A DNA stretch of 64,000 bases from an uncultured Nitrospirales bacterium. GTDB lineage: Bacteria > UBA10199 > JADGCS01. How positions within the stretch are numbered: position 1 is the first letter of the stretch; each line of letters begins with the position of its first letter. A program made the translations under genes and the position numbers. The DNA is taken from assembly GCA_964609965.1 (NCBI GenBank), contig CAZSTS010000001.1, positions 3,191 to 67,190 of the forward strand. The letters are read 5' to 3'. Under the pieces are notes generated by a model. It was not told the DNA's origin and ran no database searches. It saw nothing but the letters and a program-made list of their open reading frames with translations. Positions 3,073-62,315 of this stretch are shown piece by piece.

Positions 3073-3420
3073 ATGAAAAAGCAAAATCTACAAACAGTTC
3101 AAAGAGAAGACAGTTTAGAAGATAAATTAGAGCAGGTTGATAATGAGTTTAAGGACTTCCTAGCTAGTCTATCTTATAAAAGAGAATTTGGACCTGATAA
3201 ATTAAGAACATTCAGTCCTTTAGATGCTGTTGCAGATTTTGAACAATATGGCATCCAGTCAGTTCGCGAAGTAACTCGTGAAGAGATGTTAGAGCAAGAT
3301 GCTGGTATTAATAAACTTTTGGCTAATATGCTTGATCAGTGTCAACCAGGTGCTTTGAGCGAAGAAGATGTAAAGCAGATTACTGGAATTAATGGACGCG
3401 AAGTTCATGCAGGACTTTAA
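3073..3420 (+). CDS. Hypothetical acidic protein (115 aa)
   Basis: ORF with SD aaaggag 7 nt upstream of the ATG. No recognisable motif. Confidence 0.55.
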   Translation: MKKQNLQTVQREDSLEDKLEQVDNEFKDFLASLSYKREFGPDKLRTFSPLDAVADFEQYGIQSVREVTREEMLEQDAGINKLLANMLDQCQPGALSEEDVKQITGINGREVHAGL

Positions 3421-10340: not shown

Positions 10341-10438
10341 GTTTTCCCCCTAAAATTGATAATATTCAGTAGTATACACTTAAAGTTTAGGAGTATCAAC
10401 TTGTGAGTAAGATTTGAAGATAGAAATGTAAAGAATTA

Positions 10439-45103: not shown

Positions 45104-45805
45104 GTGATATCGAGTCATGAAGAACGAGCGACGAGGAACGGATCCATGGTCGATAGAGTCGAAAACAGATTCGAGCAACCACATTTATATAGAGTAGATG
45201 GCACTAGAGATGCGCTCGAAGAAGAAAGAAGCAAAGACGGAAATGAAGGCGAAGACGAGGGCGAACCTGATAATTTTGATAAGCTCCGCGACAGCGATGA
45301 TTTAAGGTCTCTCTTTAATAAGGCTCATCTTTGGCAAAGAAATATCGAAGTCAAAGTTGAAGACATTGATAAAATCAAAGTTCTTGGTGTAAATCTCAAG
45401 ACTGATCCCTCTTTGTTAAAAATCAGGATATTTCTTTATGACGGACAAGTAATACCTACTGCTTTTCTTTCAATTTCTCGAGAGCTTGGGTTTAAGGTTC
45501 GCAGTCTTAAGGATACGGCGTTTATTGATGTGAATGTTTTGACAAAGGAACGGGTTTTACGCATCACAATGCCTAAAGATGAATCACAATTAGATGAAGA
45601 AATAACAAAAATTACAGGAACTGTTAAAGAAAAAACATTTTCTCAAACTTTTAAAAGACTAATTTCAAAAAAGAGCTGGTTTGAAAGGCTCGGGGTGCAA
45701 GATCCGGTTTCAAAAAAGGTTAATAATGAAATAGTCTGGGTATATATTACGGTCATTGCCTTAATCACAGTATTAAGTTTTGGCATAATGTATTTATTAA
45801 TATAA
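45104..45805 (+). CDS. Tail-anchored membrane protein, hypothetical (possible Hsp20-like core); GTG start or ATG at 45146
   Basis: C-terminal TM helix IVWVYITVIALITVLSFGIMYLLI. Stop overlaps the kinase start codon. Confidence 0.5.
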   Translation: MISSHEERATRNGSMVDRVENRFEQPHLYRVDGTRDALEEERSKDGNEGEDEGEPDNFDKLRDSDDLRSLFNKAHLWQRNIEVKVEDIDKIKVLGVNLKTDPSLLKIRIFLYDGQVIPTAFLSISRELGFKVRSLKDTAFIDVNVLTKERVLRITMPKDESQLDEEITKITGTVKEKTFSQTFKRLISKKSWFERLGVQDPVSKKVNNEIVWVYITVIALITVLSFGIMYLLI

Positions 45806-48411
45806 TGGCAAAATTCGAACCAAAACCTTTCGGAAAGCATTTTCTTACAGACCGCATAGCCATTGGCGGCATGGCCGAGATTTATAAAGCCAAGACTTTT
45901 GGTGTTGATGGCTTTGAGAAGGTTTTGGCTATCAAAAAAATCCTCGCTCATTACTCTGCCGACAAAGAATTCATTACCATGCTCACTGACGAAGCTAAGT
46001 TAGTGGTGAATTTATCTCATGCGAATATTGTTCAAGTATATGATTTAGGGCGTGTGGGAGATGATTATTTTATTTCAATGGAGTACATTGACGGTATTAA
46101 TCTGAGAGATTTGATTGAGCGTAGCCGCGAATTAGACGAAGCTGTGCCCATTGATGTGGCTGTTTATGTTCTTTCGGAGGTTTGTCGAGGCTTAGATTAT
46201 GCTCATAACAGAAAAGATGTCGAAGGTAAGCCGCTAAAAATTATTCATCGAGATATTTCACCCCAAAATATTCTTGTTTCTTATGATGGCGGTGTCAAAA
46301 TTGTAGATTTTGGCATTGCAAAGGCTGCCTATAATCTTTCTCAAACACACGCAGGTATTCTCAAGGGAAAAGTCAATTACATGGCCCCGGAGCAGGCTTT
46401 TGGCAAGCCTATGGATCATCGGTCAGATATTTTTTCATTGGGAATAGTGCTTTTTGAACTTCTCACGAATAAAAGACTTTTCCATGGCGAAACGCAGATG
46501 GAGATTCTCAAAAAAATCCGTAACAATAAAATCACAGAAGCCACTTTTGAAAAAGAAGAAATCCCCGCGTTTCTTAAACCTCTCATCGCTAAGTCATTAG
46601 CTTATTCACCAAATAAACGCTATGGATCAGCTGCTGATTTGCAAATTGATCTTACAAGAATTCTTTATTCCACGTATAATGATTTTACGCCCAGAAAACT
46701 CACCGAATTGTTAGACCGTTGGTTTTCGGACCGCAGACCCAACGATGATGATCCTGAGGATGATGAACGCGAAACAGTATTAGTGAGCTCTACAGATAAT
46801 CAAGTCGATCAGCAAATCAACATTGTTCATCGTGACGAATCACTAGATTTAGACAAAGATTCATTAGATGTTGATATGCAAGAAGAGACTATAAGTCCCG
46901 AAGATGGCTTAACTGGTGACTATTTTAAAGAACCTGATGATGATATTGATGATGATATTAAAGATGAGCACATAGAAAAAACTGAAAAAACAGAAAAAAG
47001 CGAGGTCACTCATCCTCGGGAAACAATTGATGATCTTCTGAGAAGAAAGGAGACACAAAGAATCAAGGCCTATAGGCGAACATCCATCTGGGTGATTATC
47101 TTTTTTATTTTCTGCTTAGTCTTTGGTTATTACTTATTTAACAAATATCATGAAGAGATTTTTAATTTTATCAACGGTCAAGAAATAGAAGTAGTGCCCA
47201 TTGATCCAAACGAAATTAACCAAGAAAAGCCAAGTCTGAAAATAGTTTCTGAACCCTCTGGAGCCTCTGTTTGGTTCAATGGTGAAAAAACTCAAAAAAC
47301 GACACCAGCAGATATTGAAAGCATAGAACTCAACAAAAAACATTCAATAAAGCTAGTTCTCGAAGGTTTTGCTGAGGCCGAACAAGATATCACTCTCACA
47401 AAAACCGAAAACCAACTCCTCACGTTTAATCTTAAGGCAATCAGTGCTAAAACATATCCACTTGTTATTGAATCCACTCCTTCTGGAGCTCAGGTGTATC
47501 TTGATGGAAAAGATACTGGCAAAAAAACGCCTGCTCGCATCGAAAAGCTAATTGCAGAACAATCCTATAAGATCACACTCAAGTTAGATAAGTATGAGGC
47601 CTATGAAGAAACCGTGGTGCAAAAGAACGACAAAGAAAAGAAGGTTGAATCGATTCTTGTCCCCATTCCTTTAGCCTCTGTTGTTATTAGTTCCGCACCC
47701 AAGGGAGCTGATATTTATATCAACGGAGAAAAAACACCCCATCAAACGCCATACACGTTTAAAGATCTAAGTGTTCCTTCAAAATTAAGTGTTACTCTTA
47801 AAAAAGAAGGGTATCATGAGGTCGTAGAGGATTTTTCAATCGAAGCTGCAAAAAAATACAAGAAAGATCTTAAATTAAAAGAGATCATTGTTGAGGTCCC
47901 TGTAAAAGTGACTACAAATATCTCTGGTGCTCAGGTCTATATCGGCAAAAAGAAAATGGGAACAGCGCCTCTCACATTCAAACTTACTCCAGGAAGACAT
48001 AAATTATACGTAAAAAGAAATAAGTATCAAACTCAGTCAAAGACAGTATTGATTAATAAAAAAGACAAAGATTTAAAGAAGTATTATTTTAAGCTCATTA
48101 AAGAACCTGTTGCTGCAACAACAACGACAACTACCACTACCACAACAAAACCCGTTGATTCGCACACAACAATGAACACAACAACAACGAATGTGGCTCA
48201 GCAGGGAAAGTTGCGTGTGGACTCAAGCCCTCGAGGAGCAAGTGTGTCTATAAATGGAGCAGGGAAGGGCATTACGCCATTGGTAGTTAGCGGTTTACCA
48301 AAGAATAAATCATTAACAATATCAGTATCAAAAAAAGGTTATCGAACTTGGAAGAGAACCATTAATTTAACCAGAGATAGAACAGAAATTAGTGCTGTTC
48401 TTACAAAATAG
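45805..48411 (+). CDS. Membrane Ser/Thr protein kinase (Hanks-type) with five extracytoplasmic PEGA domains
   Basis: HRDISPQNILV, DFGIAK, APE. TM helix IWVIIFFIFCLVFGYYLF. Five PEGA repeats (e.g. SEPSGASVWFNGEKTQKTTP) and a poly-Thr linker. Confidence 0.85.
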   Translation: MAKFEPKPFGKHFLTDRIAIGGMAEIYKAKTFGVDGFEKVLAIKKILAHYSADKEFITMLTDEAKLVVNLSHANIVQVYDLGRVGDDYFISMEYIDGINLRDLIERSRELDEAVPIDVAVYVLSEVCRGLDYAHNRKDVEGKPLKIIHRDISPQNILVSYDGGVKIVDFGIAKAAYNLSQTHAGILKGKVNYMAPEQAFGKPMDHRSDIFSLGIVLFELLTNKRLFHGETQMEILKKIRNNKITEATFEKEEIPAFLKPLIAKSLAYSPNKRYGSAADLQIDLTRILYSTYNDFTPRKLTELLDRWFSDRRPNDDDPEDDERETVLVSSTDNQVDQQINIVHRDESLDLDKDSLDVDMQEETISPEDGLTGDYFKEPDDDIDDDIKDEHIEKTEKTEKSEVTHPRETIDDLLRRKETQRIKAYRRTSIWVIIFFIFCLVFGYYLFNKYHEEIFNFINGQEIEVVPIDPNEINQEKPSLKIVSEPSGASVWFNGEKTQKTTPADIESIELNKKHSIKLVLEGFAEAEQDITLTKTENQLLTFNLKAISAKTYPLVIESTPSGAQVYLDGKDTGKKTPARIEKLIAEQSYKITLKLDKYEAYEETVVQKNDKEKKVESILVPIPLASVVISSAPKGADIYINGEKTPHQTPYTFKDLSVPSKLSVTLKKEGYHEVVEDFSIEAAKKYKKDLKLKEIIVEVPVKVTTNISGAQVYIGKKKMGTAPLTFKLTPGRHKLYVKRNKYQTQSKTVLINKKDKDLKKYYFKLIKEPVAATTTTTTTTTTKPVDSHTTMNTTTTNVAQQGKLRVDSSPRGASVSINGAGKGITPLVVSGLPKNKSLTISVSKKGYRTWKRTINLTRDRTEISAVLTK

Positions 48412-48423
48412 GTGAGGCATATT

Positions 48424-49851
48424 ATGTCAGATAAAGTAAATAAAGAAGTCGATGTGACAACAGCAATCATTGCTCCTGATGAAACAAGAGATCTTATATC
48501 ACTCAGACGCTATCAGCTTGTGGTTGTTGCTAAAGATAGTAATCGCCGAAAGTTTGAATTAGGTAAGAAAAAGGTGATTAAGATAGGAAAGAAAACCGAC
48601 AATGATATTGTAATTAACGACAAAACGGTTTCTCGTTATCATTCTGAGATTTATGTTACAGATGATAATACATATCTCTTAAAAGATAAGAATTCTACCA
48701 ATGGAACCACAATCAATTCCATGAAAGTTAAAGAAGCCTATCTTTCACAGGGAGATCTCATTGAAATTGGTGAAACAAAGATCGAGTTTCAAACTTATGA
48801 TGAGTCTGTGCAAATTGAGCCAAGCTCAAATAATTTTTTTGGTGATATGGTGGGAAAAAGTCGAAAAATGAGACAGATTTTTGGTATTTTAGAGAGAGTT
48901 AGTAAAACACAGGCAACTGTTATCATTGAGGGAGAAACAGGCACAGGAAAAGAGTTGGTGGCCAGAGCTATTCACACTAATTCACCACGTAAAGACAAAC
49001 CTTTCATCGTTTTTGATTGTTCGTCTGTGGCACCAAATCTTATCGAGTCTGAGCTTTTTGGACACACTAAAGGGTCGTTTACAGGTGCTCTCAAGGATCG
49101 TTTGGGTGCTTTTGAGGCAGCCAATGGGGGAACCATTTTTCTTGATGAAATTGGTGAGCTCAGCATGGATTTGCAACCAAAATTATTACGTGCGCTTGAG
49201 CAACGTGAAATAAAACGTGTTGGTTCAACAAGAGCCATTAATCTCGATGTTCGTGTAGTCACAGCTACGAATCGAAACCTAAAAGAAGAAGTAAAGGCCA
49301 GTACTTTTAGAGAAGATCTGTATTACCGGCTTTCGGTGGTAAAAATTCAGGTGCCATCTTTACGTGAAAAGCTCGAAGACATTCCATTGCTTGTCGAAAA
49401 AATATTAAGTGTGGCTAGATTTAATCGCAAGGGTGATGGGAGTTTTTATGTGGCACGAATTGAGGACGATGCTTTAAAAATGCTTCAACGTTATCAGTGG
49501 CCAGGCAATGTGCGAGAGCTTACAAATATTCTTGAACGGGCTGTGAGTTTTTCGGAAAATGGCGTGGTCAAGGGAGTCCACCTTCAATACGTGTTTAGTG
49601 AGGTCGAAACAGGTGAGGAAGCCACAGTACGTCTCCAGGGCATTGCCATGGACAGGCCTTTTAAGGAGGCCAAGCAAGCTGTTGTGGAAGAGTTCGAAAA
49701 AGAATATCTCCAAGATCTATTGCAACGTAATAATGGCAATGTGTCTAAGGCAGCTCGCGAAGCCAAGATCGACCGCAAACATCTTCGCAATCTTCTTATC
49801 AAATACGAAATCATCAAGTCTGATGCTGAGTTATTAGAAGATGGGGAGTAA
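48424..49851 (+). CDS. Sigma-54-dependent transcriptional activator with N-terminal FHA domain
   Basis: FHA motif VSRYHSEI...STNGTTIN. AAA+ motifs GETGTGKE, ESELFGH and GAFEAANGGTIFLDEIGEL. C-terminal HTH. Start at ATG 48424 with SD ggtgagg. The ORF-track start is 48412. Confidence 0.88.
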   Translation: MSDKVNKEVDVTTAIIAPDETRDLISLRRYQLVVVAKDSNRRKFELGKKKVIKIGKKTDNDIVINDKTVSRYHSEIYVTDDNTYLLKDKNSTNGTTINSMKVKEAYLSQGDLIEIGETKIEFQTYDESVQIEPSSNNFFGDMVGKSRKMRQIFGILERVSKTQATVIIEGETGTGKELVARAIHTNSPRKDKPFIVFDCSSVAPNLIESELFGHTKGSFTGALKDRLGAFEAANGGTIFLDEIGELSMDLQPKLLRALEQREIKRVGSTRAINLDVRVVTATNRNLKEEVKASTFREDLYYRLSVVKIQVPSLREKLEDIPLLVEKILSVARFNRKGDGSFYVARIEDDALKMLQRYQWPGNVRELTNILERAVSFSENGVVKGVHLQYVFSEVETGEEATVRLQGIAMDRPFKEAKQAVVEEFEKEYLQDLLQRNNGNVSKAAREAKIDRKHLRNLLIKYEIIKSDAELLEDGE

Positions 49852-50065
49852 GAAACTATTCCTGTTAACTATAGCTATTTACTTAATTAAGTGATTAGTG
49901 AAAAGGAATAGTGAAAAGTTCGCAGCCATATCTCTAACAATAACAACAATATAACTCTCCTAAAATAATCACACAACCTATTGATGTCAATGGCGATAAG
50001 ATTTAGAGTAAAACAGATTTAGGCATACAATTTTAATTAAACACATAAGTTCATAGGAGGTTTTT

Positions 50066-50659
50066 ATGGGTATATTTGGGCAAGCTGCCGATGCATTAGC
50101 TCGTGATAAAGTATTATCAGAACAAACATATGGTGTTGTTGGAGAAACCTTACCAGAAAATTACGATGCGCCAATCGAAATCAAACTTGTGGAAAAAAGA
50201 GCGGTCGGCTCTGAATCTACATATGAATTGAGAACGAAAGTGAGAAAGGATGGACAGGTTTATACACAAACAGATGAACTAAATACGGGGACACATGTTT
50301 GGGACAGTTTAAACAGAATCGAAGTTTATCCCATACCTCAGTATCATGGAATTGATTGTATAGAGGCTAATTCAACTTGTTGGCAGGTTTCGGCTGTGTT
50401 TTTAGGTGAATCAGGAAATTATTACCTTCATCAAAATTCATACCAAATTGGTAATCCAATAGATGGCGACAATGTTTTTTGGGCTACATATGGTTCAAGA
50501 GAATTAACACAAACTTCAGAAGATTATGAACTAGCAGAAATGACAACTAACCAAGATGACAATGAGCTTAAGTTAGTTTTCGAACACACTGATGGTGAAT
50601 CAGAACCATCTGTTGAGACAACAATCCTAGATCCTGGTCCTGGATTTGGTCTGTTGTAG
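50066..50659 (+). CDS. Hypothetical protein (197 aa), candidate toxin/effector partner of macro-domain protein
   Basis: Strong SD aggagg 6 nt upstream of the ATG. No recognisable motif. Acidic C-terminus. Confidence 0.6.
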   Translation: MGIFGQAADALARDKVLSEQTYGVVGETLPENYDAPIEIKLVEKRAVGSESTYELRTKVRKDGQVYTQTDELNTGTHVWDSLNRIEVYPIPQYHGIDCIEANSTCWQVSAVFLGESGNYYLHQNSYQIGNPIDGDNVFWATYGSRELTQTSEDYELAEMTTNQDDNELKLVFEHTDGESEPSVETTILDPGPGFGLL

Positions 50660-50743
50660 AATATTCTATTTGAAATTCCTATTCCAATAGTAATAAGTGA
50701 TATCTCAGTATGGGGTATGAATGAATTGCAGTGAGGAGACATC

Positions 50744-51640
50744 ATGAGGATACCAGCAGTTACGGCAGCGTATGAAGCAGCAGGTCAAATTCCAGCAGTA
50801 TTAGCAGCAACATTGGTAACAACTTCGGCCTGGGCAGGTGATGCAGCTTCAAGTGGTTCAGAAGTTGCTAATTCGAATACAGGAGTACTAAAGCTGTTTG
50901 GTGATGTGTGTGAATTAGCAATAACAAATCCTATTCCTACAATCGCCATAGGAGCAGGTGTAGGTATAGCAGTTCTCGGTGGTGTGTATTTTGGAGTTGT
51001 AAAACCAAAGCTTAGAGATGCTCAATCTGCTATTAGAGGAGCAGCGTTTCTTCTTGGCGAAGCAAGAGGATTAGAACAAAAGGCAGGTATAAGGAGAAGC
51101 GAAATGGCAACATCAGGACAAATCGAAGTTATTCAAGGCAACATTACAGAGCAAAGTGTAGATGCTATTGTGAATGCAGCTAATTCTGATTTAGCTGGAG
51201 GTGGCGGTGTTGATGGTGCAATTCATAGTGCAGCTGGATGGGATGAATTACAAGCTTTGTGCAAACCCTTGGGAGGGTGCCCAACAGGTAGTGCCAAAAT
51301 GACAGGGAGTTGTGGGTTGGCTGAAAGAGGTATTAAGCACATCATCCATGCTGTGGGACCAATTTATGGGAGGAATGCTGGCAGGGACGATGAACTTTTA
51401 GCAGGATGTTATCGAGAATCTTTGCGTCTTGCTGAAGAAAGTGGTGACATCGAGTCCATTGCCTTTCCCGCCATTAGTACAGGTGTTTATGGTTTTCCTG
51501 CAGCTCTAGCTGCCAAGATTGCAGCCAGAGAAATCAAAGCCTTTCTTGCAACAAGTCAAAATGTTAAAAGAGTCGTTTTAGTAGGATATAGTTCTGATTC
51601 AACTAGAGTGCTTGCAAAAGGAGTGAGGAAAGCGCGGTGA
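50744..51640 (+). CDS. Macro-domain (MacroD/YmdB-type ADP-ribose hydrolase) protein with 120-aa hydrophobic Gly/Ala-rich N-terminal extension
   Basis: NAANSDLAGGGGVDGAIHSAAG, AFPAISTGVYGFP. An alternative internal start at 51104, with SD aaggag, would give the macro domain alone. Confidence 0.75.
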   Translation: MRIPAVTAAYEAAGQIPAVLAATLVTTSAWAGDAASSGSEVANSNTGVLKLFGDVCELAITNPIPTIAIGAGVGIAVLGGVYFGVVKPKLRDAQSAIRGAAFLLGEARGLEQKAGIRRSEMATSGQIEVIQGNITEQSVDAIVNAANSDLAGGGGVDGAIHSAAGWDELQALCKPLGGCPTGSAKMTGSCGLAERGIKHIIHAVGPIYGRNAGRDDELLAGCYRESLRLAEESGDIESIAFPAISTGVYGFPAALAAKIAAREIKAFLATSQNVKRVVLVGYSSDSTRVLAKGVRKAR

Positions 51641-51654
51641 TTGTCTCATTTTCC

Positions 51655-51800
51655 AATCCCAGTCCCATTTATGAGACTTAAGTGAGACTCATTTGGGACT
51701 GAAATATCAAATCAATAAGATCTAACCTGTTGATATTTTATCTATAAATATATTTAACTCTTTGGCATGGTTGGTGCAATATAGCTCTTAAAGGAGATGT
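51655..51800 (+). repeat. ~150-bp repeated intergenic promoter element, copy 1 (second copy 53293-53443)
   Basis: About 85% identical to copy 2. Begins cccagtcccatttatgagacttaagtgagactcatttgggactg. Confidence 0.8.
51763..51779 (+). promoter_or_regulatory. Sigma-54 -24/-12 promoter candidate TGGCATG-N4-GTGCAA inside repeat copy 1
   Basis: GG (51764-51765) and GC (51776-51777) are exactly 10 nt apart. Confidence 0.5.
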
Positions 51801-51874
51801 ATGCCTTGCTATACTCAACTTTTTCTTTGTTTTTTTTGAGCGAGAAAAGTATAATAAGATATACATATAGATAT

Positions 51875-52135
51875 ATGTATAAACTACTTTTGTCTGAAGT
51901 TGTTAAAAAGCAGTGTAAAAATATTCCGAGAAAAGACTTGGAAAAGATTAAAAACATCGTTTCAGAATTGAGAAAAGAACCACGACCTAGAAAGTGTAAG
52001 AAGCTTAGTGGTGGAAAACAAGAATATAGAATCAGGTATCGTTATTGGAGAATACTATATTCTGTTTATGATAATAATAATAATAATACCATTGTTGTTT
52101 ATGGTGTTTTGTCAAGGAAGGAGGCCTATCGATGA
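51875..52135 (+). CDS. RelE/ParE-family type II toxin (ORF track start 51797; Met at 51875 fits family length)
   Basis: KKLSGGKQEYRIRYRYWRILYSVYD...TIVVYGVLSRKEAY signature. Contains an in-frame (AAT)5 Asn run. Confidence 0.7.
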   Translation: MYKLLLSEVVKKQCKNIPRKDLEKIKNIVSELRKEPRPRKCKKLSGGKQEYRIRYRYWRILYSVYDNNNNNTIVVYGVLSRKEAYR

Positions 52136-52335
52136 AAACTGTGTCCGTAAAACTTGATGATTATGTACTTAGCCTTTTAAATTCAGAAGCAAAAAAACGA
52201 AAAGTAACCCGTATGGAGATCATAAGATCCTCAATAATCAAATTTCTACTTAGTACAAGTGATGCTGAAGATTTGGAATATATCAAAAATCATAAAAATG
52301 ATAAATTAGTGGGTTTTGATAAGGTGTTTAAGTAA
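52132..52335 (+). CDS. Ribbon-helix-helix (CopG-like) antitoxin
   Basis: KTVSVKLDDYVLSLLNSEAKKRKVTRMEIIRSSI. Overlaps the toxin stop as ATGA. Confidence 0.65.
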   Translation: MKTVSVKLDDYVLSLLNSEAKKRKVTRMEIIRSSIIKFLLSTSDAEDLEYIKNHKNDKLVGFDKVFK

Positions 52336-52405
52336 TCGATCCCAAAACCGCAGTCATTCGTTAGCTACTCGTCGAAGCGCTCATGTCGAGGAAGAAAATG
52401 GCGTG
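52336..52405 (+). pseudogene. 3' remnant of a brnA-like antitoxin gene (~90% identical to 54193-54264), interrupted by in-frame TAG
   Basis: atcccaaaaccgcagtcattcgttagct...gtcgaagcgctcatgtcgaggaagaaaatggcgtga aligns with the end of the 54010-54261 gene. Confidence 0.65.
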
Positions 52406-52451
52406 AGGGGGGTATTTGTAATATTCATAAACATAATGTATTAATTACTTA

Positions 52452-53294
52452 GTGAAAAATCTTCATTACACACCACAGTCTCTCATCAAAAAGTTACAAG
52501 AACTTGATAAAGAATTAGACTGGAAAGAGTTATTAAGAAATGGCTATCAGAAATCTGCTGTTTTTGATGCTGATGGGACTTTGTGGAAAGACAATCTTTC
52601 AGCGAGAATGATAGAAGAAGATACAAGGAATCGAAACCTGTCAGAAAAAGGCCTTAATGCTTTAAATCAGCATTTAATCTATTTCAATCTAGAGCCACAA
52701 GAGACGATTTATTTGGCTAAAGCTAAATTGACTGAAGCTTTCTGGAGTGGAGAACTGTATAAAATAGCAAAAGACCTTAAACCATCTTTGAATGAAGATG
52801 AAGTGCATGAGAAAATATGGAATCATTATAACTTGCTCTATGTTGGTTTATCACCACAGGAATTAGAAGAGAAAGCCACACGTTTTTTGGAGCAGGGTTT
52901 TAAAGATAACTTTTATAAAGGCATGGAAGAGGTTATTCGTTATTTAAAAAGAGCTGGATTTAAACTCTACGTTGTAAGTGCTGGAGTACATGAATTCGTG
53001 ACTGCTGGGGCTCGCTTGCTTGGTTTTAACAAGAGTGATGTTCATGGATTGAAATTAAAGGTGGTAGATGGGCTCATCACTTCCGAAACCGAACTTCCTG
53101 TTACGTATAAGGATGGAAAAACTCAAATAGCAACGAAGTTGTGTGGAGGAAAACCTTTTCTTGTCTTTGGTGATTCTGTCTCTGGTACAGATGAAAAAAT
53201 CTTAGAAGAAGCGTATTTTCCTGTGGCAGTTGAGCCTGAGGGTAAAGATCTAAAAATAGCTCAGGAAAAGGGGTATGCAATATTAGGTTTCTAG
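52452..53294 (+). CDS. HAD-superfamily hydrolase (subfamily IB-like)
   Basis: Motif I VFDADGTLW and motif IV GDSVSGTDE. Confidence 0.65.
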   Translation: MKNLHYTPQSLIKKLQELDKELDWKELLRNGYQKSAVFDADGTLWKDNLSARMIEEDTRNRNLSEKGLNALNQHLIYFNLEPQETIYLAKAKLTEAFWSGELYKIAKDLKPSLNEDEVHEKIWNHYNLLYVGLSPQELEEKATRFLEQGFKDNFYKGMEEVIRYLKRAGFKLYVVSAGVHEFVTAGARLLGFNKSDVHGLKLKVVDGLITSETELPVTYKDGKTQIATKLCGGKPFLVFGDSVSGTDEKILEEAYFPVAVEPEGKDLKIAQEKGYAILGF

Positions 53295-53443
53295 TCCCAG
53301 TCCCATTTATGAGACTTAAGTGGGACTCATTTGGGACTGATGTTTCAAGTCAATAAGATCTAACCCATTGATATTTAATCTATAATTAATTTTCACAGAT
53401 TGGCATAGTTGGTGCTTAATCATATCTTAAGAAAGGAGATATT
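53293..53443 (+). repeat. ~150-bp repeated intergenic promoter element, copy 2
   Basis: Same inverted-repeat head and tail as copy 1. Contains the SD aaggagatatt before the ATG at 53444. Confidence 0.8.
53401..53417 (+). promoter_or_regulatory. Sigma-54 -24/-12 promoter candidate TGGCATA-N4-GTGCTT inside repeat copy 2
   Basis: GG (53402-53403) and GC (53414-53415) are 10 nt apart. Lies 27 nt upstream of the ATG at 53444. Confidence 0.5.
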
Positions 53444-53710
53444 ATGAATAAGTATCCATATGAACTCATAAAGTACTCATCTTTTGGTTATTATGCCTTT
53501 GGTGAAAGTGATTTCATCATTACACCTCCACAGTGTTATCTTGATTTAGGAAGTTCAAAAGCAGAAAGACAGGAGCGCTTTCGCCAAATGGTGGATTTGA
53601 TTCTCAAACATGATTTTCCAGATGCCACATATTGGGAAGAGTATGCTTCAGTCAGCAATCCATTCTGGGTATGTGAACGGTATGAAGAAATTGTGGAAAA
53701 GCTAAATTAA
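53444..53710 (+). CDS. Hypothetical small protein (88 aa)
   Basis: Good SD and a sigma-54 candidate promoter upstream. No motif recognised. Confidence 0.55.
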   Translation: MNKYPYELIKYSSFGYYAFGESDFIITPPQCYLDLGSSKAERQERFRQMVDLILKHDFPDATYWEEYASVSNPFWVCERYEEIVEKLN

Positions 53711-53774
53711 TCTAAGTAGATAAAGGATATATTAATAACATTGCAAATGCATATCAATTTAATATATAATAAAT

Positions 53775-54047
53775 ATGTATTCGTGGGATAATAAGAAGAA
53801 TAAGAGTAATATTCAAAAACATGGTATTAGTTTCGAAGAAGCAAGAGATCATATTTTTGAAAAGGATAATATTTTAGTAACTAATGTAGCCTACAACAGA
53901 GGTGAGAAACGTCATGCAGTGATAGGTAGGTACCTAGATAAATACTATGTTGGGATATTTACTTTCAAAAGAAAAACGATTCGAATTATTTCAGTGAGGA
54001 GGGCTCGCTATGAAGAAGAAAAACAAGCAAAAGAAAAAGGACTTTGA
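53775..54047 (+). CDS. BrnT-family (DUF497) type II toxin
   Basis: SWDNKKNKSNIQKHGISFEEA...RIISVRRARYEEEK matches the BrnT signature. Confidence 0.75.
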   Translation: MYSWDNKKNKSNIQKHGISFEEARDHIFEKDNILVTNVAYNRGEKRHAVIGRYLDKYYVGIFTFKRKTIRIISVRRARYEEEKQAKEKGL

Positions 54048-54261
54048 TCAAGAGTTTTCAGACGGAAAAGTGGCTGTTGATTTTACTGCCGGTGTTAAAA
54101 CAAGTGGACTCAGTCGTGTAAAGAAACTCCCTCCTATGACAATTCCTGCCTGGCTAAATGCCGAAATTGAAAAAATATCCAAATTACAAGCCAATCCCAA
54201 AACAGCTGTCATTCGTCAGCTTCTTGTCGAAGCGCTCATGTCGAGGAAGAAGATGGCGTGA
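54010..54261 (+). CDS. BrnA-family RHH antitoxin
   Basis: C-terminal RHH TIPAWLNAEIEKISK...AVIRQLLVEAL. Overlaps the brnT end. Confidence 0.7.
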   Translation: MKKKNKQKKKDFDQEFSDGKVAVDFTAGVKTSGLSRVKKLPPMTIPAWLNAEIEKISKLQANPKTAVIRQLLVEALMSRKKMA

Positions 54262-54270
54262 TGGATGAGA

Positions 54271-56103
54271 TTACCCCAAAATTTCTTCTAACTTCCTATC
54301 AAATTTCTGATTGAGTACATCAAACTCAAGGCTGAGTTTTTCAAAACGATCAAAAGAGATGTCTATTTCATTCATGGCCTCTTTGGCTTCTTTGGAGAGT
54401 CTCACAATCTCATCACCATTCTGTTCTTGAGAAGCTACTTCTAACTCCTTATGGATCGAGGCTTCTTTGGCTTCTAATTCGAATATTTTCTTCTCAAGTG
54501 CCTTTATCTCCCTTTGTCTTGGTTTCATGACCTTGTCTCGCTCTTCCCTAAGACCTGCTTTGAGTTTACGAAGCTCTTTTTTAGGATGCGTTGTTTGTGT
54601 GCTGGAAGGTTTGTTCTCCTCATCTCCCCAGCCCACTTTTTCTAAGAATTCATCATAAGACCCATTAAAAATAGTCACTTCATCGTCTTTGAAGACAATG
54701 ATTTTATTGGCAATGGATTTCAATATCATCTCAGAATGAGTCACCATGAGAAGAGCGCCTTTGTACCCGCTGATAGCCGTAACAAGCGCATCAATAGATT
54801 GCATATCAAGATGGTTGGTGGGTTCATCGAGTAGGAGTAGATTTGTAGGAGCTGCAATAACTTTTCCAAGCATCACGCGGCTTCTTTCACCTCCAGAGAG
54901 AACAGAGATTTTCTTTTCGGCAAACTCCCCACTAAACATCATGCAACCACAAATAGTTCTCACTCCTGTACGATCTAACCCGGGATTAGAGCTTTGAACT
55001 TCTTCTTCGACCGTGCATCGCTCAGAGAGTTCATCGATGTTTGTTTGAGCAAAGTACCCTGTTTTTACAAGCTCATGCTTATGAACACTTCCTTTTTGAG
55101 GACTGAGTTCTCCTGCCAAAAGTTTGATGAGGGTGGATTTGCCTTTTCCGTTTTTGCCCACAATAGCAATTCTATCATCTGGACGTACAGTGAGAGAAAA
55201 ATCTTTTATGAGAGGAGATGCAGGATCATAGCCAAATTGAAGGTCTTCTATCTTCATCAATTGCTTGCTTTGGATTGGCTTGTATTGAAACTTGAAACCT
55301 AGATTGGCAATTTTCGAAAGGACTTCTTTTTGCGAGAGTTTTGCAATCACCTTCATCTTAGATTGAGCGGCCGAGGCCTTGGTAGCCTTTGTTCCAAAGC
55401 GTTCCACAAATCTTTCCAAATGCTTTCTTTGTCGCTCTTCATTCAAACGTGTTTTTTCATAAACCTCTTCATCTTGTTCTATTTGGGCATATATTTTTTG
55501 GGTATTTCCCCTCATCTTTCTTATCTTTGTTCTATGGATACAGGCAGTGTGGGTTGTTACCTGATCCATAAATCCTCTATCATGTGAAATAATAATCAAT
55601 TCATGTTTCCAATTACGCAAAAACTTGATGATCCAGCGGATTGAAATAACATCGAGATAGTTTGTGGGTTCGTCTAGGAGCAAGAGATGGGGGTTGGAAA
55701 TCAAAACTTTAGCAAGGTTTAATCTTACCTGAAAACCGCCTGAGAATGTCTCGGGTGATTTATCCAAATCTTCTTTTGTAAAACCAAGGCCAAAAAGAAT
55801 CTTTTCTACTTTGTAAGTATCATTAATTTCATCTGGCAAAAGTCCAAGACAACCTTCTTCTAGAATAGTCGGTTTTGTAAAATTGAGGAGCTGAGCCACG
55901 TGCCCGATTCGATAGTCTTTTGGAAAGATAATGCTTCCTGAATCAGTAGAGGATTCTTCAAGGATCATTTGAAACAAAGTTGTTTTTCCAGATCCATTTC
56001 GGCCCACGAGTCCAATACGTTCTCCCTGGTGAATTTGTAAGCTAGCCTTATCAAAGAGGATTTGAGGGCCATAGGATTTTGAGATGTTCTCAATCGTCAG
56101 CAT
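54271..56103 (-). CDS. ABC-F family ATPase (two ABC cassettes, no TMD; EttA/Uup-like)
   Basis: Two Walker A sites (GRNGSGKTT, GKNGKGKST), two LSGG signatures and a linker. Confidence 0.88.
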   Translation of the reverse strand: MLTIENISKSYGPQILFDKASLQIHQGERIGLVGRNGSGKTTLFQMILEESSTDSGSIIFPKDYRIGHVAQLLNFTKPTILEEGCLGLLPDEINDTYKVEKILFGLGFTKEDLDKSPETFSGGFQVRLNLAKVLISNPHLLLLDEPTNYLDVISIRWIIKFLRNWKHELIIISHDRGFMDQVTTHTACIHRTKIRKMRGNTQKIYAQIEQDEEVYEKTRLNEERQRKHLERFVERFGTKATKASAAQSKMKVIAKLSQKEVLSKIANLGFKFQYKPIQSKQLMKIEDLQFGYDPASPLIKDFSLTVRPDDRIAIVGKNGKGKSTLIKLLAGELSPQKGSVHKHELVKTGYFAQTNIDELSERCTVEEEVQSSNPGLDRTGVRTICGCMMFSGEFAEKKISVLSGGERSRVMLGKVIAAPTNLLLLDEPTNHLDMQSIDALVTAISGYKGALLMVTHSEMILKSIANKIIVFKDDEVTIFNGSYDEFLEKVGWGDEENKPSSTQTTHPKKELRKLKAGLREERDKVMKPRQREIKALEKKIFELEAKEASIHKELEVASQEQNGDEIVRLSKEAKEAMNEIDISFDRFEKLSLEFDVLNQKFDRKLEEILG

Positions 56104-56394
56104 GAAAGCGTAATATCAAAAATCACCAAAGATTAACACGTTAAAGATTATCAACCCAAAATTTGGGTTTGAATCCACGGGGTTTACCCCGTAAACATAA
56201 AAAATATTCAGATTCAAACCCCGTTGCTTGCTGCGGGGTCATTGATCTGACGCTTAGGAGCACTGAAATCGTGTGTCCGGCAAATATTGCCTATCATTTT
56301 GATAAATAACCAATATTTTCTCATATATTATTCGCTTAACGGCTGAAAAAAATGAATATATTGCGATATATCAAGGGTTTATATTTGAAGGCTA

Positions 56395-56411
56395 TGGCAT
56401 CAATTTTGCAT
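56395..56411 (+). promoter_or_regulatory. Sigma-54 -24/-12 promoter candidate TGGCATC-N4-TTGCAT
   Basis: GG (56396-56397) and GC (56408-56409) are 10 nt apart. The predicted leader to the ATG at 56425 would be very short. Confidence 0.4.
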
Positions 56412-56424
56412 TAGTAAAGTCATT

Positions 56425-58272
56425 ATGAAAAAACAAAATATATTAAAAAAAGGGTTTATTTGTTTAATTGTGGCCATGGCATGTGTAGCCTTGATTCATT
56501 GCTCATCATCAGATTCAGGATCGAGCGGTGATACGACGCCAAATACTAATGAAGAAGTTCTCGCTCTCACAGCAACAACTCAATCTGTGTGGTATTATCT
56601 TGATTCGGATGGAGATGGAGAAGGAGAAATCGAAAACCAACGCGTGAAATATTATGATTCTAACAGCAATCTTTTAATGAAAACAATTGCTGATACTGAC
56701 GGAAATGTAGAATCTGAGAGAACGTATACCTATGATGCTAATGGCGACCTGCTTAGTATTTCAATTGATTCAGATAATGATGGTTCATACGATTCTATTT
56801 CAGAATATGAGTACAATGATAAATCACAATACATAGGGTTTACCTATAAATCTAAAGACGAAGAAGAAAAATTAGAGACAGTTTATACAAAAACATTTGA
56901 ACGCACTTACAATGATGATGGAAATCTTACAAAAATAGTAGAGAACAAAGACGGAGAATTACAATCAACCACAGACTTTGAGTACAGTAAGTCTGGTGAT
57001 TATTACGGTGTATTTGTAAAAGCTTATTCTTCAACAAATATGATTACTGAGGTAAACTTCTTTCTTTTTGATAGTACAGATGATTACCAGAGCTGTCTAT
57101 TTACAAGTGCCATTGAAGCAATTTGTGATCTTAGAATAGCTTACCACGTTACTTCAGAAATAATATATTATGATGCCAGAACATATGATAGTTACAAAAA
57201 CGAAACGCAAACTCTGTCCTATTATGATGAAACCCCTGAATCAATGGTGCCTTCATTAGATCTTTCCCTTGATAGCTTGTTAGCCTTGTTTACTAATTAT
57301 ACTTCATTCCCAGTAAAAGGTGAGGTCACAACAACGTATACGTACGAAGAAGATTCAGATAAAATACTAAAAAAGAATGTCAATACAGTTTTTACTACTA
57401 CTTATAGTGATGGAGTTGATACAGCACTTGATTCAGAAGATGGAGATAGTACTGATGCAGATGAAACAAGTGCAAGCGTGCAGACTCAAATCGAGATCTA
57501 TTGGTACCTTATTTATGATATAGTAAATGATGCCTATTTTGTTCTAGCAGATGAAGACGGTAACAATATTTCTGATGAAGTAGATGCAATTTTAGCAGGA
57601 GGTGTAGAAGGAATTGCAGGGAGTGCAGAAGAAACTTGTGATGGCAAGGACAATGATGGTGATGAAGAGATTGATGAAGGCGTCATGACGACTTATTACG
57701 ATGATGATGACCATGATGGCTATGGAGACCCTGCTGTGACTTCTGAGGCCTGTAGCAAACCCACTGGTTATGTAGAGAATGCCTTAGATTGTGATGATAC
57801 AGATAGAGAAGTGACAACTGCAGAGGAAACAATATGGTATTTGGATGATGATGGTGATGGTGAAGGAGATGAAACGAGTACTAAAACTGGTTGTGAAGCA
57901 CCTGAAGGTTATGTAGATAATGCTGATGATTGCGATGATACTAACCCAAATGTTTATAAAGATAATGAAGAAGTCTGTGATGGTATAGATAACGACTGTG
58001 ATGATAGAATAGATGAATATTTTACTGAAAGAACCTACTATGCGGATTCAGATGAAGATGGGTATGGGGATCCAGCTTCAACTATTGACTATTGTGAACA
58101 ACCAGATGGCTATGTGACGGATAATACAGATTGCGATGATGATAATGCAAACATTCATCCTGGACATGGAGAAGTTTGTGCTGATGGTGTAGACAGTAAT
58201 TGTGAAGATGGCGATACCGAAACATTCTCAGATGGTGAGTGCACAATGAGATATGCACCTTTTGGGATATAG
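56425..58272 (+). CDS. Lipoprotein with C-terminal MopE-type Cys/Asp-rich 'putative metal-binding' repeats
   Basis: Lipobox VALIHCSSSD. Repeats ...YYDDDDHDGYGDPA...CDGxDNDCD... x4. Confidence 0.7.
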   Translation: MKKQNILKKGFICLIVAMACVALIHCSSSDSGSSGDTTPNTNEEVLALTATTQSVWYYLDSDGDGEGEIENQRVKYYDSNSNLLMKTIADTDGNVESERTYTYDANGDLLSISIDSDNDGSYDSISEYEYNDKSQYIGFTYKSKDEEEKLETVYTKTFERTYNDDGNLTKIVENKDGELQSTTDFEYSKSGDYYGVFVKAYSSTNMITEVNFFLFDSTDDYQSCLFTSAIEAICDLRIAYHVTSEIIYYDARTYDSYKNETQTLSYYDETPESMVPSLDLSLDSLLALFTNYTSFPVKGEVTTTYTYEEDSDKILKKNVNTVFTTTYSDGVDTALDSEDGDSTDADETSASVQTQIEIYWYLIYDIVNDAYFVLADEDGNNISDEVDAILAGGVEGIAGSAEETCDGKDNDGDEEIDEGVMTTYYDDDDHDGYGDPAVTSEACSKPTGYVENALDCDDTDREVTTAEETIWYLDDDGDGEGDETSTKTGCEAPEGYVDNADDCDDTNPNVYKDNEEVCDGIDNDCDDRIDEYFTERTYYADSDEDGYGDPASTIDYCEQPDGYVTDNTDCDDDNANIHPGHGEVCADGVDSNCEDGDTETFSDGECTMRYAPFGI

Positions 58273-59772: not shown

Positions 59773-62019
59773 TTACTGCACGACGCCGCCAATGACTGAA
59801 GGATCATCAACAGAAGGTTTAGTTCCTATATCAGGTTCAGTGTATTGATTTTCTGGTGTGGTAAGATCTGTTGGCAGAGCCAGGCTGGAACAAGAAGAGG
59901 AGTCCAAAGATGTCATGTATTCTTCAACAACCATGGCCTTTGTATAATATGTGGTTCCATTACAACTGATTTCAGTGCCATTGGGGATCGCAAAGAGAGA
60001 AGACCAATGCTCAAAATTTGAACTTGTATCTTCATTTAACTCATAGGGAATACCCCAAAGTTCACCTACGCCTGCATATTCTAGATAATATGTTCCGTAC
60101 GTTGAATGTGTGTATGTACAAACAAGTGGTTCATCAAATTCCACAACATCTCCGTTGCTGTCTATGAGTGCCGTATATTTATTCCAGGATTCAGGTCCTG
60201 TCTCCCATTGGTATGTGATTTCAGCATCCCAAACATCCCAAGAATCTTCTAAGGCACTGGTGACTAAGTCTCCAGAAGCTAATCCCCAATAATAATAACT
60301 ACCACTATCAATCACGGCTCCAGAGGCAATTGTGACTTCATCTCCATTATAGGTTAACGAATAATCACTAGGGTCAAAAGTATATGTGTAGTAAATTTCA
60401 CTTCCATAAATAAAATCATACACTGTATCTAGAAATGGTGTTTCGTCATTAAGATCACTAGCGCTGAGGGCTCCCTTAGGGCATTGGTAATAACAGTAGA
60501 GGGTGAAAGGGCTGCTGTAATCATCAGGTGTAACAAGGGTCTCAATATCATATGTGATAGATGTTGCATCAGAAAGGCCTTCATAAGGCACAATAACAGT
60601 GACCGAACCGAAACTTTGTTTCCAAAGACTAATCCATTCATCAGTGTAAAATATAAGAGGTGTTTCACTCATAGCTATTGTTGTACAACCATCATCTCCA
60701 CAAGATTCATAAGCAGTCGCTACAAAATCAGTTCCATTCCATTTCACCCAGTAGGAATCTCCAATATAGTCCCAGTACATGAATGTCTCATCCTTGATTG
60801 AAGCAAGTGTGCTGGTGCTCGATGTGATTTTGGTTAATCTACCACCTCCCACAAGGGTAGTGTAATTCTGATCAGTACCTGCTAAGGTCATCCCTGATGT
60901 GACTTCAGTATCATCTGAGAGCCAAATTCCATAGTAACTTGCATAACCATAAATATCTGTTCCTTGAGTAACAGAAAAGCCTCCATTGAGATCTACTTTT
61001 GCTCCATCAGAGTCATAAAGATTGTATTGCCAGACTGAGGAAGTATAATTTTGTCGATCAAGACAGTTATTAGAAGTTTTTGTATCTGAACCATCAACAG
61101 AATCAACTTTTGAGCGATAATAGTTGCTATCAAAAGCCACATAACTTGTCCGTACAAAATCAGCTGCTGTCTCGTAAGAATATGCCTTGCCTGAGTCAGC
61201 TGATGGATTCAACAGAGCATTGACGGTTTGATAGCTTGGTTCAGTCATATAAGGATTTGAGAGTGTCATTTGTAAAGTTGTTTCGCCAGAATCATTAGTT
61301 GTAGCAACAATAAATCCTGTAAGGGCAGCAAGGCCATTACTATCATAGCCTGCTAAATCCATATGAAAGGAACCTAGAGGATTGTCATCGCTGGCCTCTT
61401 CTGTGATAGTCATTTTAGCTTTGATTTCATCAAGATCAGAGGTGGGGTCCTCAGAGCCATGGGTTGTTGTTGATGTGTTTTCAACCCAGATATTAATAAC
61501 TTGATCTGCTGTGTCAGAGGCTCTTGTGCTATTCAGGATCCATCTTTCATAATTAATAGGTTTACCTGTTGATTGGTTTGTTGAGCTTGAGGCCTGGCTG
61601 CTATTGCGATCGCATACATCGTAATTAATAAGAGCAGCATAAGCGCCTTCATTGATCATGCTATCAGATCGCGCTTGTTTGAGTGAGCATAAAATTATGT
61701 TCATTGTATCTAAAGCCTGCATTGACTCTTCATAGACATAATATTCTGTTTCATCTGTTAAATATTCTCCGGCAGTAGGGACTGCAAATTTTGAAATATT
61801 ACCTAGAAAACTATTCGTACTGGCAGATGCAATTGTTTCTTGAGGTGTAATATACGAAACTTGTTCTGGAATGGTTAAGGCATTAATTCCACTTGGTGTG
61901 TCTAAAGGAATGGAAGCTGTTGGAGCGTTATTTCCACAAGCACCAGCACCAAAACAGATAAATAGACAGATAATGAAGAGGTTATTTAAACTGAACCTCA
62001 TTATATAGTCCCCTCTCAA
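59773..62019 (-). CDS. Large secreted/lipoprotein, hypothetical (748 aa)
   Basis: Signal/lipobox ICFGAGACGNN. Ser/Thr/Tyr-rich and beta-rich. Confidence 0.55.
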   Translation of the reverse strand: MRGDYIMRFSLNNLFIICLFICFGAGACGNNAPTASIPLDTPSGINALTIPEQVSYITPQETIASASTNSFLGNISKFAVPTAGEYLTDETEYYVYEESMQALDTMNIILCSLKQARSDSMINEGAYAALINYDVCDRNSSQASSSTNQSTGKPINYERWILNSTRASDTADQVINIWVENTSTTTHGSEDPTSDLDEIKAKMTITEEASDDNPLGSFHMDLAGYDSNGLAALTGFIVATTNDSGETTLQMTLSNPYMTEPSYQTVNALLNPSADSGKAYSYETAADFVRTSYVAFDSNYYRSKVDSVDGSDTKTSNNCLDRQNYTSSVWQYNLYDSDGAKVDLNGGFSVTQGTDIYGYASYYGIWLSDDTEVTSGMTLAGTDQNYTTLVGGGRLTKITSSTSTLASIKDETFMYWDYIGDSYWVKWNGTDFVATAYESCGDDGCTTIAMSETPLIFYTDEWISLWKQSFGSVTVIVPYEGLSDATSITYDIETLVTPDDYSSPFTLYCYYQCPKGALSASDLNDETPFLDTVYDFIYGSEIYYTYTFDPSDYSLTYNGDEVTIASGAVIDSGSYYYWGLASGDLVTSALEDSWDVWDAEITYQWETGPESWNKYTALIDSNGDVVEFDEPLVCTYTHSTYGTYYLEYAGVGELWGIPYELNEDTSSNFEHWSSLFAIPNGTEISCNGTTYYTKAMVVEEYMTSLDSSSCSSLALPTDLTTPENQYTEPDIGTKPSVDDPSVIGGVVQ

Positions 62020-62315
62020 AAATTCCGACTCTTCTAATTCTAACGCAATATGTTTTCATGTGGGTTCATCTACAACACCATGAATTCCATATTCCCCTAA
62101 GATATTGAAGCAATATGCATGCCAGAATCTGCAAATAAAAAGGGCAGAAAATACGGAATGTTACTGAATTATTCAATACTTAGAGGCAAAACTTGCCTAT
62201 AAAATACAGATATTAACTGTAAAATTCCTAATAAAGTGTACTTGGATAGGAATGAGGAAACTTCATAATAACGTCATACTTGCTTGTCCTTTATCTTCTT
62301 GATAACGGCGTGCGT

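Follow-up and report, generated by a model that had tools for sequence, protein, structure and literature searches.

The islet described here occupies 2.6 kb in the genome of an uncultured Nitrospirales bacterium (GTDB lineage Bacteria; UBA10199; JADGCS01), within a stretch of 64,000 nucleotides (positions 3,191 to 67,190 of the forward strand of contig CAZSTS010000001.1, assembly GCA_964609965.1) that is called the window throughout and whose own numbering is used. It lies between a macro-domain gene (50744-51640) and an ABC-F gene, and it contains two toxin-antitoxin (TA) gene pairs together with an element of about 150 bp that is repeated ahead of them, all on the forward strand. The first copy of this element, D1 (51650-51803), is followed by the genes of a RelE/ParE-superfamily toxin of 86 amino acids (51875-52135) and of a ribbon-helix-helix (RHH, CopG-like) antitoxin of 67 amino acids (52132-52335), by a remnant of the last 22 codons of the second operon's antitoxin gene, brnA (D2 copy 1, 52339-52409), by a brnT-like segment of 29 nt and uncertain status (52418-52446), and by the gene of an HAD-IB family phosphatase of 280 amino acids (52452-53294). 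The second copy of D1 (53288-53446) precedes a short gene encoding 88 amino acids (53444-53710), a sigma-70-like promoter (53741-53770), the ribonuclease toxin gene brnT (90 amino acids, 53775-54047) and a brnA-like antitoxin gene (83 amino acids, 54010-54261), whose tail constitutes the second copy of D2 (54194-54264).

A sequence-only reading had recognised a small TA islet in this place, and the gene calls confirm it. The first toxin matches Pfam ParE_toxin (PF05016; E = 3.3e-7, 31.2 bits against a cut-off of 23) and, over its full length, the RelE-like toxin of PHROG (1.1e-11), and it has the same start in the metagenome annotations; judged from these matches it may act as an RNase, like RelE, or as a poison of gyrase, like ParE. 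Its partner scores 19.9 bits with Pfam RHH_1 (E = 6.8e-4), just under the cut-off of 20.5, and is matched by a transcriptional repressor (9e-7) and a CopG-like family (6.8e-4) of PHROG and weakly by the aCcr1/BrnA RHH models of NCBIfam. The ParE/RelE-like toxin is upheld by both Pfam and PHROG, and the RHH antitoxin after it is probable. The two genes overlap by 4 nt (ATGA), and in this translational coupling and in its probable domain content the pair resembles the known toxin-first RelE/ParE-RHH systems; unlike them, it is placed within what seems to be the frame of another module, extending from a captured sigma-54-type promoter to a brnA tail. The call of a HAD hydrolase was likewise borne out (profile match, E = 1e-12).

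The claim of a BrnT/BrnA pair stands for the toxin, BrnT (PF04365) being matched with 76.6 bits against a cut-off of 34.5 (E = 1.9e-21), by the RNase toxin of PHROG (9.4e-15) and by PDB entry 7vd7, 'toxin' (9.6e-6). The antitoxin is called BrnA-like from its position, its size and a weak match along the full NCBIfam BrnA profile (E = 0.058, 13.6 bits against a cut-off of 60); no Pfam match and no PDB sequence match were found for it. The toxin gene comes first and the two genes overlap by 38 nt, a layout shared with L041, one of four other metagenomic loci that carry a relative of the short gene (L038, L041, L055 and L060). The antitoxin of L041 matches CopG_antitoxin (PF12441), and its alignment with the window protein, although collinear, is not significant (BLASTP E = 8.4). 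The canonical brnTA system is a two-gene operon (PMC11980606). As in BrnT/BrnA of Brucella abortus (PF04365 with an RHH antitoxin), the toxin gene of the window precedes a small overlapping gene, possibly with an RHH-like C-terminus, and appears to have its own promoter; unlike that system, the window and L041 have a sigma-54-type promoter and a small Y1-derived gene ahead of the pair, and the window antitoxin is too diverged for a significant match to the BrnA family.

The two copies of D1 can be aligned without gaps over 128 nt (51650-51777 and 53288-53415) with 86% identity, far above chance, and with small gaps the similarity runs on to a Shine-Dalgarno (SD) sequence and an ATG, which gives the full extents indicated above. 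The left edge is sharp, copy 1 beginning 10 nt past the stop codon of the macro gene, and the final two codons and the stop codon of the HAD gene (GGT TTC TAG) fall within the left end of copy 2. A palindromic core of 38 nt occurs exactly twice in the 64 kb of the window versus 0.00 expected. The D2 repeat spans 71 nt with 90% identity; it starts inside brnA and comprises the last 22 codons, the stop codon and 3 further nt. Its copy 1 begins 3 nt past the stop codon of the RHH gene, carries an in-frame TAG at 52362-52364 and is recovered by tblastn as brnA residues 62-83 (91%); the copy of the brnA end that had been noted after the first antitoxin is a pseudogene remnant. When the region 51600-54300 was compared with itself by tiled local alignment only two diagonals appeared; they scored 35-48, the background being 7.4 +/- 2.2, so that both repeats of the sequence-only reading are well above background. 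The segment 52418-52446, which resembles brnT codons 11-20 (53806-53832) with an indel of 2 nt, was equalled in score by 5 of 2000 shuffles (P ~0.0025) and may be a third scar of rearrangement; it now overlaps a sigma-70-like TTGTAA-17-TATTAA ahead of the HAD gene.

Promoters that depend on sigma-54, such as those of nifH, glnAp2 and pspA, combine upstream activator sites, a site for integration host factor (IHF) and GG/GC elements. D1 presents the same parts in the same order: four to five heptamers of the type TGRGACT, an IHF consensus, a -24/-12 element, an SD sequence (AAGGAG) and an ATG. In copy 1 the heptamers AGTCCCA, TGAGACT, TGAGACT and TGGGACT, with starts 11 nt apart, cover 51661-51700, and in copy 2 five of them cover 53293-53338. 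About 25 nt past the array stands the IHF site, TAAC-N4-TTGATA, which fits the consensus YAANNNNTTGATW (TAACCTGTTGATA at 51723-51735 in copy 1, TAACCCATTGATA at 53361-53373 in copy 2), and about 30 nt past it the -24/-12 element, TTGGCAT-N5-GTGC, with the correct spacing. The latter reads TGGCATGGTTGGTGC at 51763-51777 in copy 1, with a predicted start of transcription at ~51789 and the SD at 51791-51796, and TGGCATAGTTGGTGC at 53401-53415 in copy 2, with a predicted start at ~53427, the SD at 53433-53438 and the ATG at 53444; both copies agree with the consensus TGGCAC-N5-TTGC at 9-10 of 12 positions. The centre of the heptamer array is located ~108 nt upstream of the predicted start and that of the IHF consensus at about -60. 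As a match of sequence, D1 thus resembles the classical sigma-54 promoters in its putative activator-site array about 110 nt upstream, in its IHF position and in the exact 10-nt spacing of the GG and GC elements; it differs from them in preceding a transposase-derived small gene and TA operons instead of metabolic or stress genes.

The strict motif TGGCA-N7-TGC, whose chance rate is ~0.006 per 100 nt, lies upstream of all five stand-alone homologues of the short gene (window, L038, L041, L055 and L060) and, with 10-12 of 12 consensus positions in agreement, of L043-L045, the three full-length Y1_Tnp genes nearest to them. In the subfamily 9 of 9 loci have the -24/-12 motif versus none of 10 more distant members of the family, and the sequence flanking the motif cannot be aligned among the subfamily loci. 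A strict IHF consensus lies between array and -24 element in L038 and one with a single mismatch is present in L060; heptamers of the TGAGACT type recur in L055 and L060, and L038 has GTCCCA-N26-TGGGAC. The D1 copies of the window differ at 18 positions, which tend to lie outside the motifs (1 of 45 motif positions versus 17 of 83 elsewhere, Fisher P = 0.0026). Hence D1 carries every sequence feature of a sigma-54-dependent promoter, and dependence on sigma-54 would be expected from them. The earlier idea that the repeated element is a promoter is retained in so far as D1 is a promoter region; the idea of a generic TA promoter is not, the region being by all these patterns of the sigma-54 type and native to the family of the Y1-derived short gene.

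Other readings of D1 were considered. No run of T follows the palindrome, as a terminator hairpin would have, and no terminator was found there; a sigma-70 promoter with TTGGCA as its -35 box was discarded since inspection by eye revealed no conserved -10 box upstream. A scan of 50000-56500 against Rfam gave no match at E <= 1, which sets D1 apart from the known RNA elements. Binding of the heptamers by the 88-residue protein is disfavoured by its acidic character (residue count). The counterpart in copy 1 of the short gene's start codon, the ATG at 51801, is vestigial and opens a reading frame of only 12 codons. Another ATG, at 51797, abuts the SD in the frame of parE and is followed by 26 codons without a stop, both other frames having stops; an N-terminally extended ParE translated from a sigma-54 transcript is conceivable, although the closeness of this ATG to the SD and the gene callers, which place the start at 51875, speak against it.

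The short gene had been taken as an orphan, a view that must be abandoned. An indexed protein search with the 88-residue protein retrieved only the protein itself; an exhaustive phmmer search gave 38 matches, with E-values down to 1e-10. The long relatives (234-295 amino acids) are matched at about residues 140-220, past an N-terminal Y1_Tnp domain, and the full-length ones pass the Pfam cut-off for Y1_Tnp. The region of similarity is the C-terminal extension of the class-2 TnpA-Y1 (RAYT-like) proteins, including the motif SS[FY]..YA.G, and the short protein starts at what is, in the full-length proteins, a conserved internal methionine (MVxHP). It has neither the HUH motif nor the catalytic tyrosine and gives no match to Pfam Y1_Tnp even at E = 10; no debris of a catalytic core was found upstream of the gene and no full-length Y1 gene in the window. 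Lacking the catalytic core, the protein cannot act as a transposase. With its relatives in the four other loci it forms a stand-alone clade of five members, the other four having 41-67% protein identity, the same start (MNKYP or MEKYP), their own SD and a sigma-54-type promoter. The ratio of nonsynonymous to synonymous substitution rates (dN/dS) is 0.11 against the relative of 67% identity and at most 0.40 across the computable pairs, which indicates that the short gene is under purifying selection and is not a broken transposase gene. The AlphaFold (AF2) model is confident and all-helical (pLDDT 86, pTM 0.79), and no relative of it was found among solved structures by structure or by sequence.

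In the survey of class-2 TnpA-Y1 proteins by Quentin et al. (2018; PMC6006769) the C-terminal extension is conserved, bears a serine motif and has no known function, and sequences without the core motifs were left out as likely non-functional. The window protein agrees with that class (TnpA-REP/RAYT, TIRYT) in aligning to the extension with the serine motif, which in full-length relatives accompanies the HUH and tyrosine core; it differs in being a separate gene devoid of the catalytic core and under purifying selection. A metagenome scan with an alignment of three sequences yielded full-length Y1 genes only, and a scan of viral contigs and a tblastn search of plasmids yielded no matches. Several apparent short forms were rejected: P0014, P0034 and P0037 proved to be full-length genes that have decayed, P0015 differs in architecture, and P0004 is an artefact whose contig L039 (ENA ERZ650341 NODE_104554) starts with an Illumina Nextera adapter (L039:1-70), so that its N-terminus is artificial. 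Decayed Y1 fragments (L066, L068/69, L071) look different and are devoid of a sigma-54-type promoter. Two further features were observed among the relatives. In L042 (395-460) the tandem direct repeat AAAAATCCAGACGGACTGACAATT x2 stands ahead of a full-length Y1_Tnp homologue of 295 amino acids that has no -24/-12 motif; and L038 is a contig of 644 bp bounded by inverted repeats of 40 nt (13-52 and 604-643, 93% complementary), present neither in the window nor in the other loci; the contig may be a mobile unit of small size, or the assembly may have broken at a repeat.

The order of the islet can be written A-X-B-HAD-A-Y-B, where A is D1, B the brnA tail, X the parE-RHH operon (51804-52338) and Y the short gene together with brnT and the 5' portion of brnA. 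The coding differences between the two brnA tails are five synonymous and one nonsense, with no missense, versus 23% synonymous expected (P = 0.003); the truncated copy therefore diverged mostly within a working brnA gene. Taken together with the D1 differences that spare the motifs, this pattern implies that two functional, diverged modules existed before one of them lost its interior. On these sequence patterns the islet is best described as two paralogous copies of one module, consisting of promoter, short gene, brnT and brnA: the downstream copy (53288-54264) would be the intact module, and in the upstream copy (51650-52409) the interior would have been replaced by parE-RHH, so that only its promoter region and the final 22 brnA codons are left. 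That two such modules were present, that one of them exchanged its interior and that both TA operons came in this way under signal-dependent control is, as a whole, the account we regard as probable. Either a circle carrying one unit, integrated by homologous recombination at D1 or D2, or a second module that had been remodelled beforehand and entered directly behind the macro gene would account for the present order. The cassette shuffling of the sequence-only reading survives in that different contents are found within the same frame of D1 and brnA tail; a simple duplication in situ followed by decay is not what the two substitution patterns indicate.

The islet varies little among the sequences at hand, contigs of the same species from several independent metagenomes being 99.98-100% identical across it. 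An orthologous locus in related species was not found: the ABC-F proteins of the GTDB representatives have at most 52% identity and unrelated contexts, and the relatives of the macro protein have at most 62% identity, over the macro domain alone. The GC content is 30-34% in the TA parts and 30-39% in the islet versus 40-46% in the flanking genes, and this lower GC is the sole hint of a foreign origin. For a TA operon that takes the chromosomal place of a Y1-related locus there is a parallel in Escherichia coli, where, as far as PMC6006769 relates it (its ref. 23), the REPtron, or tnpA-REP locus, is replaced by a TA operon in some strains; compared with that account, the islet differs in keeping the Y1-family promoter upstream of the incoming TA genes and in having both versions in tandem. 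A side observation was made in L055, in which three diverged direct copies (69-80%) of the 3' tail of thyA (8058-8116, 8736-8794 and 10290-10348) bracket two small insertions, one being a gene of 149 amino acids and the other a Y1_Tnp/DnaA_C gene (TIRYT-like) flanked by 25-nt inverted repeats and followed by a sigma-54-type promoter and the short gene. These thyA tails have the same signature of a displaced gene tail as the brnA tail of the window.

The association of the short gene with TA genes extends beyond the window. L041 has the trio of the window, with BrnT and a gene of the CopG_antitoxin type after the short gene, and in L060 the short gene stands between AbiEi/AbiEii and a Gp49/HigB-type toxin gene. 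A toxin-first TA operon thus comes directly after the short gene in three of five independent loci (P <= 1e-3 at a prior of 5%), with spacers of 64 nt in the window, 67 nt in L041 and 63 nt in L060 and in each case a -10 box near the start codon of the toxin gene. In the window this box belongs to TTGCAA-18-TATAAT, identified by consensus match only (10 of 12 positions) and placed 4 nt before the ATG of brnT, as in a leaderless-type start. As a side observation, brnT, the HAD gene and gp49 of L060 all lack an SD, and in each of them a -10-like box precedes the start codon by only 4-7 nt (53765-53777, 52439-52454 and L060:2020-2036), which suggests leaderless or nearly leaderless mRNAs.

Systems of three genes are known among TA modules, namely toxin-antitoxin-chaperone and paaR-paaA-parE. 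It could be proposed that the small protein of Y1 descent functions as a third partner of toxin-first TA operons, acting as regulator, trigger or anti-antitoxin in one signal-responsive system. The recurrent position at spacers of 63-67 nt agrees with this proposal, and so do the lack of a convincing terminator between the short gene and brnT and the nature of the protein, small, acidic and helical like many antitoxin-like binders; as in the known three-gene systems, an extra small gene would be transcribed with or beside the TA pair. However, the toxins differ (BrnT, Gp49, and ParE without any short gene), each TA operon seems to have a promoter of its own, with sigma-70-like boxes at about 51860 and about 53775 in the window, the two loci of closest context, L055 and L038, have no TA genes beside the short gene, and canonical brnTA needs only its two genes (PMC11980606). 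The 88-residue protein is unrelated to SecB-like chaperones or PaaR-type regulators and is encoded upstream, under a separate sigma-54-type promoter, and a shared location in accessory islets could by itself yield the association. A third partner is for these reasons judged rather unlikely.

A different view would make D1 the end of a mobile element, a hairpin read as single-stranded DNA by a Y1 transposase as in IS200/IS605-like, REP or PATE elements, with an incidental -24/-12 motif; transposition by a Y1 enzyme would then have put the islet together. The adjacent gene is indeed Y1-derived, the heptamer region folds better than shuffled sequences, the short gene of L055, near thyA, adjoins a full-length Y1_Tnp/DnaA_C gene whose inverted repeats contain ATGAGAC, and L038 is bounded by inverted repeats. 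Against these stand the number and the form of the repeats: D1 has just two copies in 64 kb, both within the islet, which fold in different registers, and D2 gives no consistent hairpin (z = +1.25 and -2.0). As for the inverted repeats in L038 and L055, they show no relation to D1, lie outside it and are absent from the window, and none flank the window module. Moreover, the short protein is devoid of HUH motif and catalytic tyrosine, no full-length Y1 gene accompanies it in the window, and a mobile-element end leaves unexplained both the fixed-distance TGGCA-N7-TGC of nine loci out of nine and the IHF site. We therefore hold it to be improbable.

Duplication in situ followed by neutral decay would render D1 copy 1 and the brnA tail inert and the 88-residue reading frame a transposase pseudogene. 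The stop codon in the brnA tail, the vestigial start codon of D1 copy 1 and the existence of decayed Y1 fragments elsewhere speak in its favour. Nevertheless, the short gene, with dN/dS ~0.1, shares its start, SD and promoter with four other loci and has no N-terminal debris upstream, the D1 substitutions spare the motifs and the brnA tail has accumulated synonymous changes without missense ones, so that decay from the outset is most improbable. Finally, an integron-like or other site-specific cassette array, to which the small promoter-proximal cassettes in one orientation, the repeats at their borders and the frequency of TA genes in chromosomal integrons might point, is hardly credible. The annotation shows no integrase in the 10 kb to either side, and none had been seen in the earlier reading; both strands of 51400-54500 are free of R''/R' attC-like core pairs; and what is repeated is a promoter region and the tail of a gene, not imperfect palindromic recombination sites.

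According to the paralogous-module account, the intact module would comprise a sigma-54-dependent promoter region, the 88-residue gene and brnT-brnA with its own sigma-70-type promoter. An activated enhancer-binding protein would occupy the heptamer array, about 110 nt upstream, IHF would bend the DNA, and the sigma-54 RNA polymerase would initiate near 51789 and 53427. The transcript of copy 1 would then read into parE-RHH and possibly into the HAD gene, and that of copy 2 into the short gene and brnTA. Both TA operons would thereby be placed under a signal-dependent promoter besides their own promoters.

A candidate for the activator is encoded 1.8 kb upstream of the islet. The gene at 48412-49851 specifies a bacterial enhancer-binding protein (bEBP) by its domain content: FHA, AAA+ with a GSFTGA loop and a Fis-type helix-turn-helix. 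It may be taken as a sign that sigma-54 activation operates in this organism; that its product acts on D1 is a guess, and it is proposed as a candidate only. Next to it lies the gene of a Ser/Thr kinase (45805-48411) with five PEGA repeats, the stop and start codons of the two genes abutting (45805-49851). One assembly (L002/L062) breaks the activator gene in two, with FHA on one part and AAA+ on the other, and this points to a frameshifted variant or to an error in sequencing.

Sigma-54-like sites are not confined to D1, since the strict motif has 8 matches in the window versus 1.9 expected, and 3 of the 9 IHF matches in the window lie just upstream of such sites. Two more are intergenic, at 56395 and, on the minus strand, at 62124. 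In the region between the ABC-F gene and a MopE-like gene, TGGCATCAATTTTGC ends 15 nt before the ATG at 56425 and has an IHF consensus on the minus strand directly upstream (56369-56381; whole region 56369-56409); two GC-rich, hairpin-like stretches are found in the same intergenic region at 56150-56260. The other site, TGGCATGCATATTGC (62110-62124, minus strand), lies ~90 nt upstream of a minus-strand open reading frame (59773-62019) whose product of 748 amino acids has no Pfam match. As for the flanking genes, the macro-domain call is upheld (E = 1e-35) and the ABC-F profile was also matched. The macro-domain protein has an N-terminal extension of 125 residues, hydrophobic and rich in alanine and glycine as judged by eye, which is unmatched in homologues, the best other matches being confined to the macro domain with at most 62% identity.

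Several points weigh against the account given here. The motif positions in D1 were defined in part after inspection of the sequence; the -12 box of the window is GTGC and not TTGC; the predicted start of copy 1 falls just 2 nt ahead of the SD; and the heptamer region also folds as a hairpin (z ~-3.3 to -3.6), so that a structural role is possible. No rpoN gene was seen in the 64 kb of the window, no genome-wide search for it having been made, and L055 has no bEBP gene within 10 kb, so that the proximity of the bEBP gene in the window may be a coincidence. The stand-alone homologues known are five and all metagenomic. The order of events is a reconstruction, no locus of a sister species having been found that would polarise the rearrangement.

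A more far-reaching possibility, which can be put forward only tentatively and seems doubtful at present, is that the stand-alone Y1/HUH C-terminal domain, domesticated and produced from a sigma-54 promoter that a kinase-coupled bEBP controls, forms the input of a portable, signal-responsive switch for toxin-first TA operons. If so, the D1-parE copy would be a case in which the switch has been re-used for a different toxin, the others being brnTA and gp49/higBA.

Every part of the islet is of a known kind, a type II TA, a sigma-54 promoter or a Y1-family domain, and it is the combination that is unusual; no new kind of system is implied. No sigma-54-controlled Y1/RAYT gene was found in the literature searched, and the titles and abstracts of the literature found describe no sigma-54-driven TA operon. 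Within that literature three features appear to be undescribed: a predicted sigma-54 promoter conserved across a Y1 subfamily, a stand-alone gene for the Y1 C-terminal domain that is under selection, and a sigma-54-type promoter of the Y1 family placed twice ahead of TA operons. What the sequences themselves show are the repeats, the identities of the genes, the relationship of the short gene and the selection on it, the conservation of the -24/-12 element and the substitution patterns; the whole, which depends on patterns of sequence in five metagenomic loci, is to be regarded as a lead and not as a result.

By the usual description TA operons are sigma-70 units that regulate themselves, and it has long been asked what turns them on. 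Sigma-54 promoters fire only once an activator protein has received a signal. The islet offers a concrete and testable case in which two different TA operons lie directly behind a predicted sigma-54 promoter. Moreover, a small gene family under selection consists of the C-terminal extension of RAYT-like Y1 proteins alone, a type of sequence that, lacking the core, had previously been set aside as non-functional. The presence of sigma-54-type promoters on the closest full-length Y1 genes suggests that this branch of the Y1 family may be regulated by its host, that is, domesticated, rather than being a free-running transposase.

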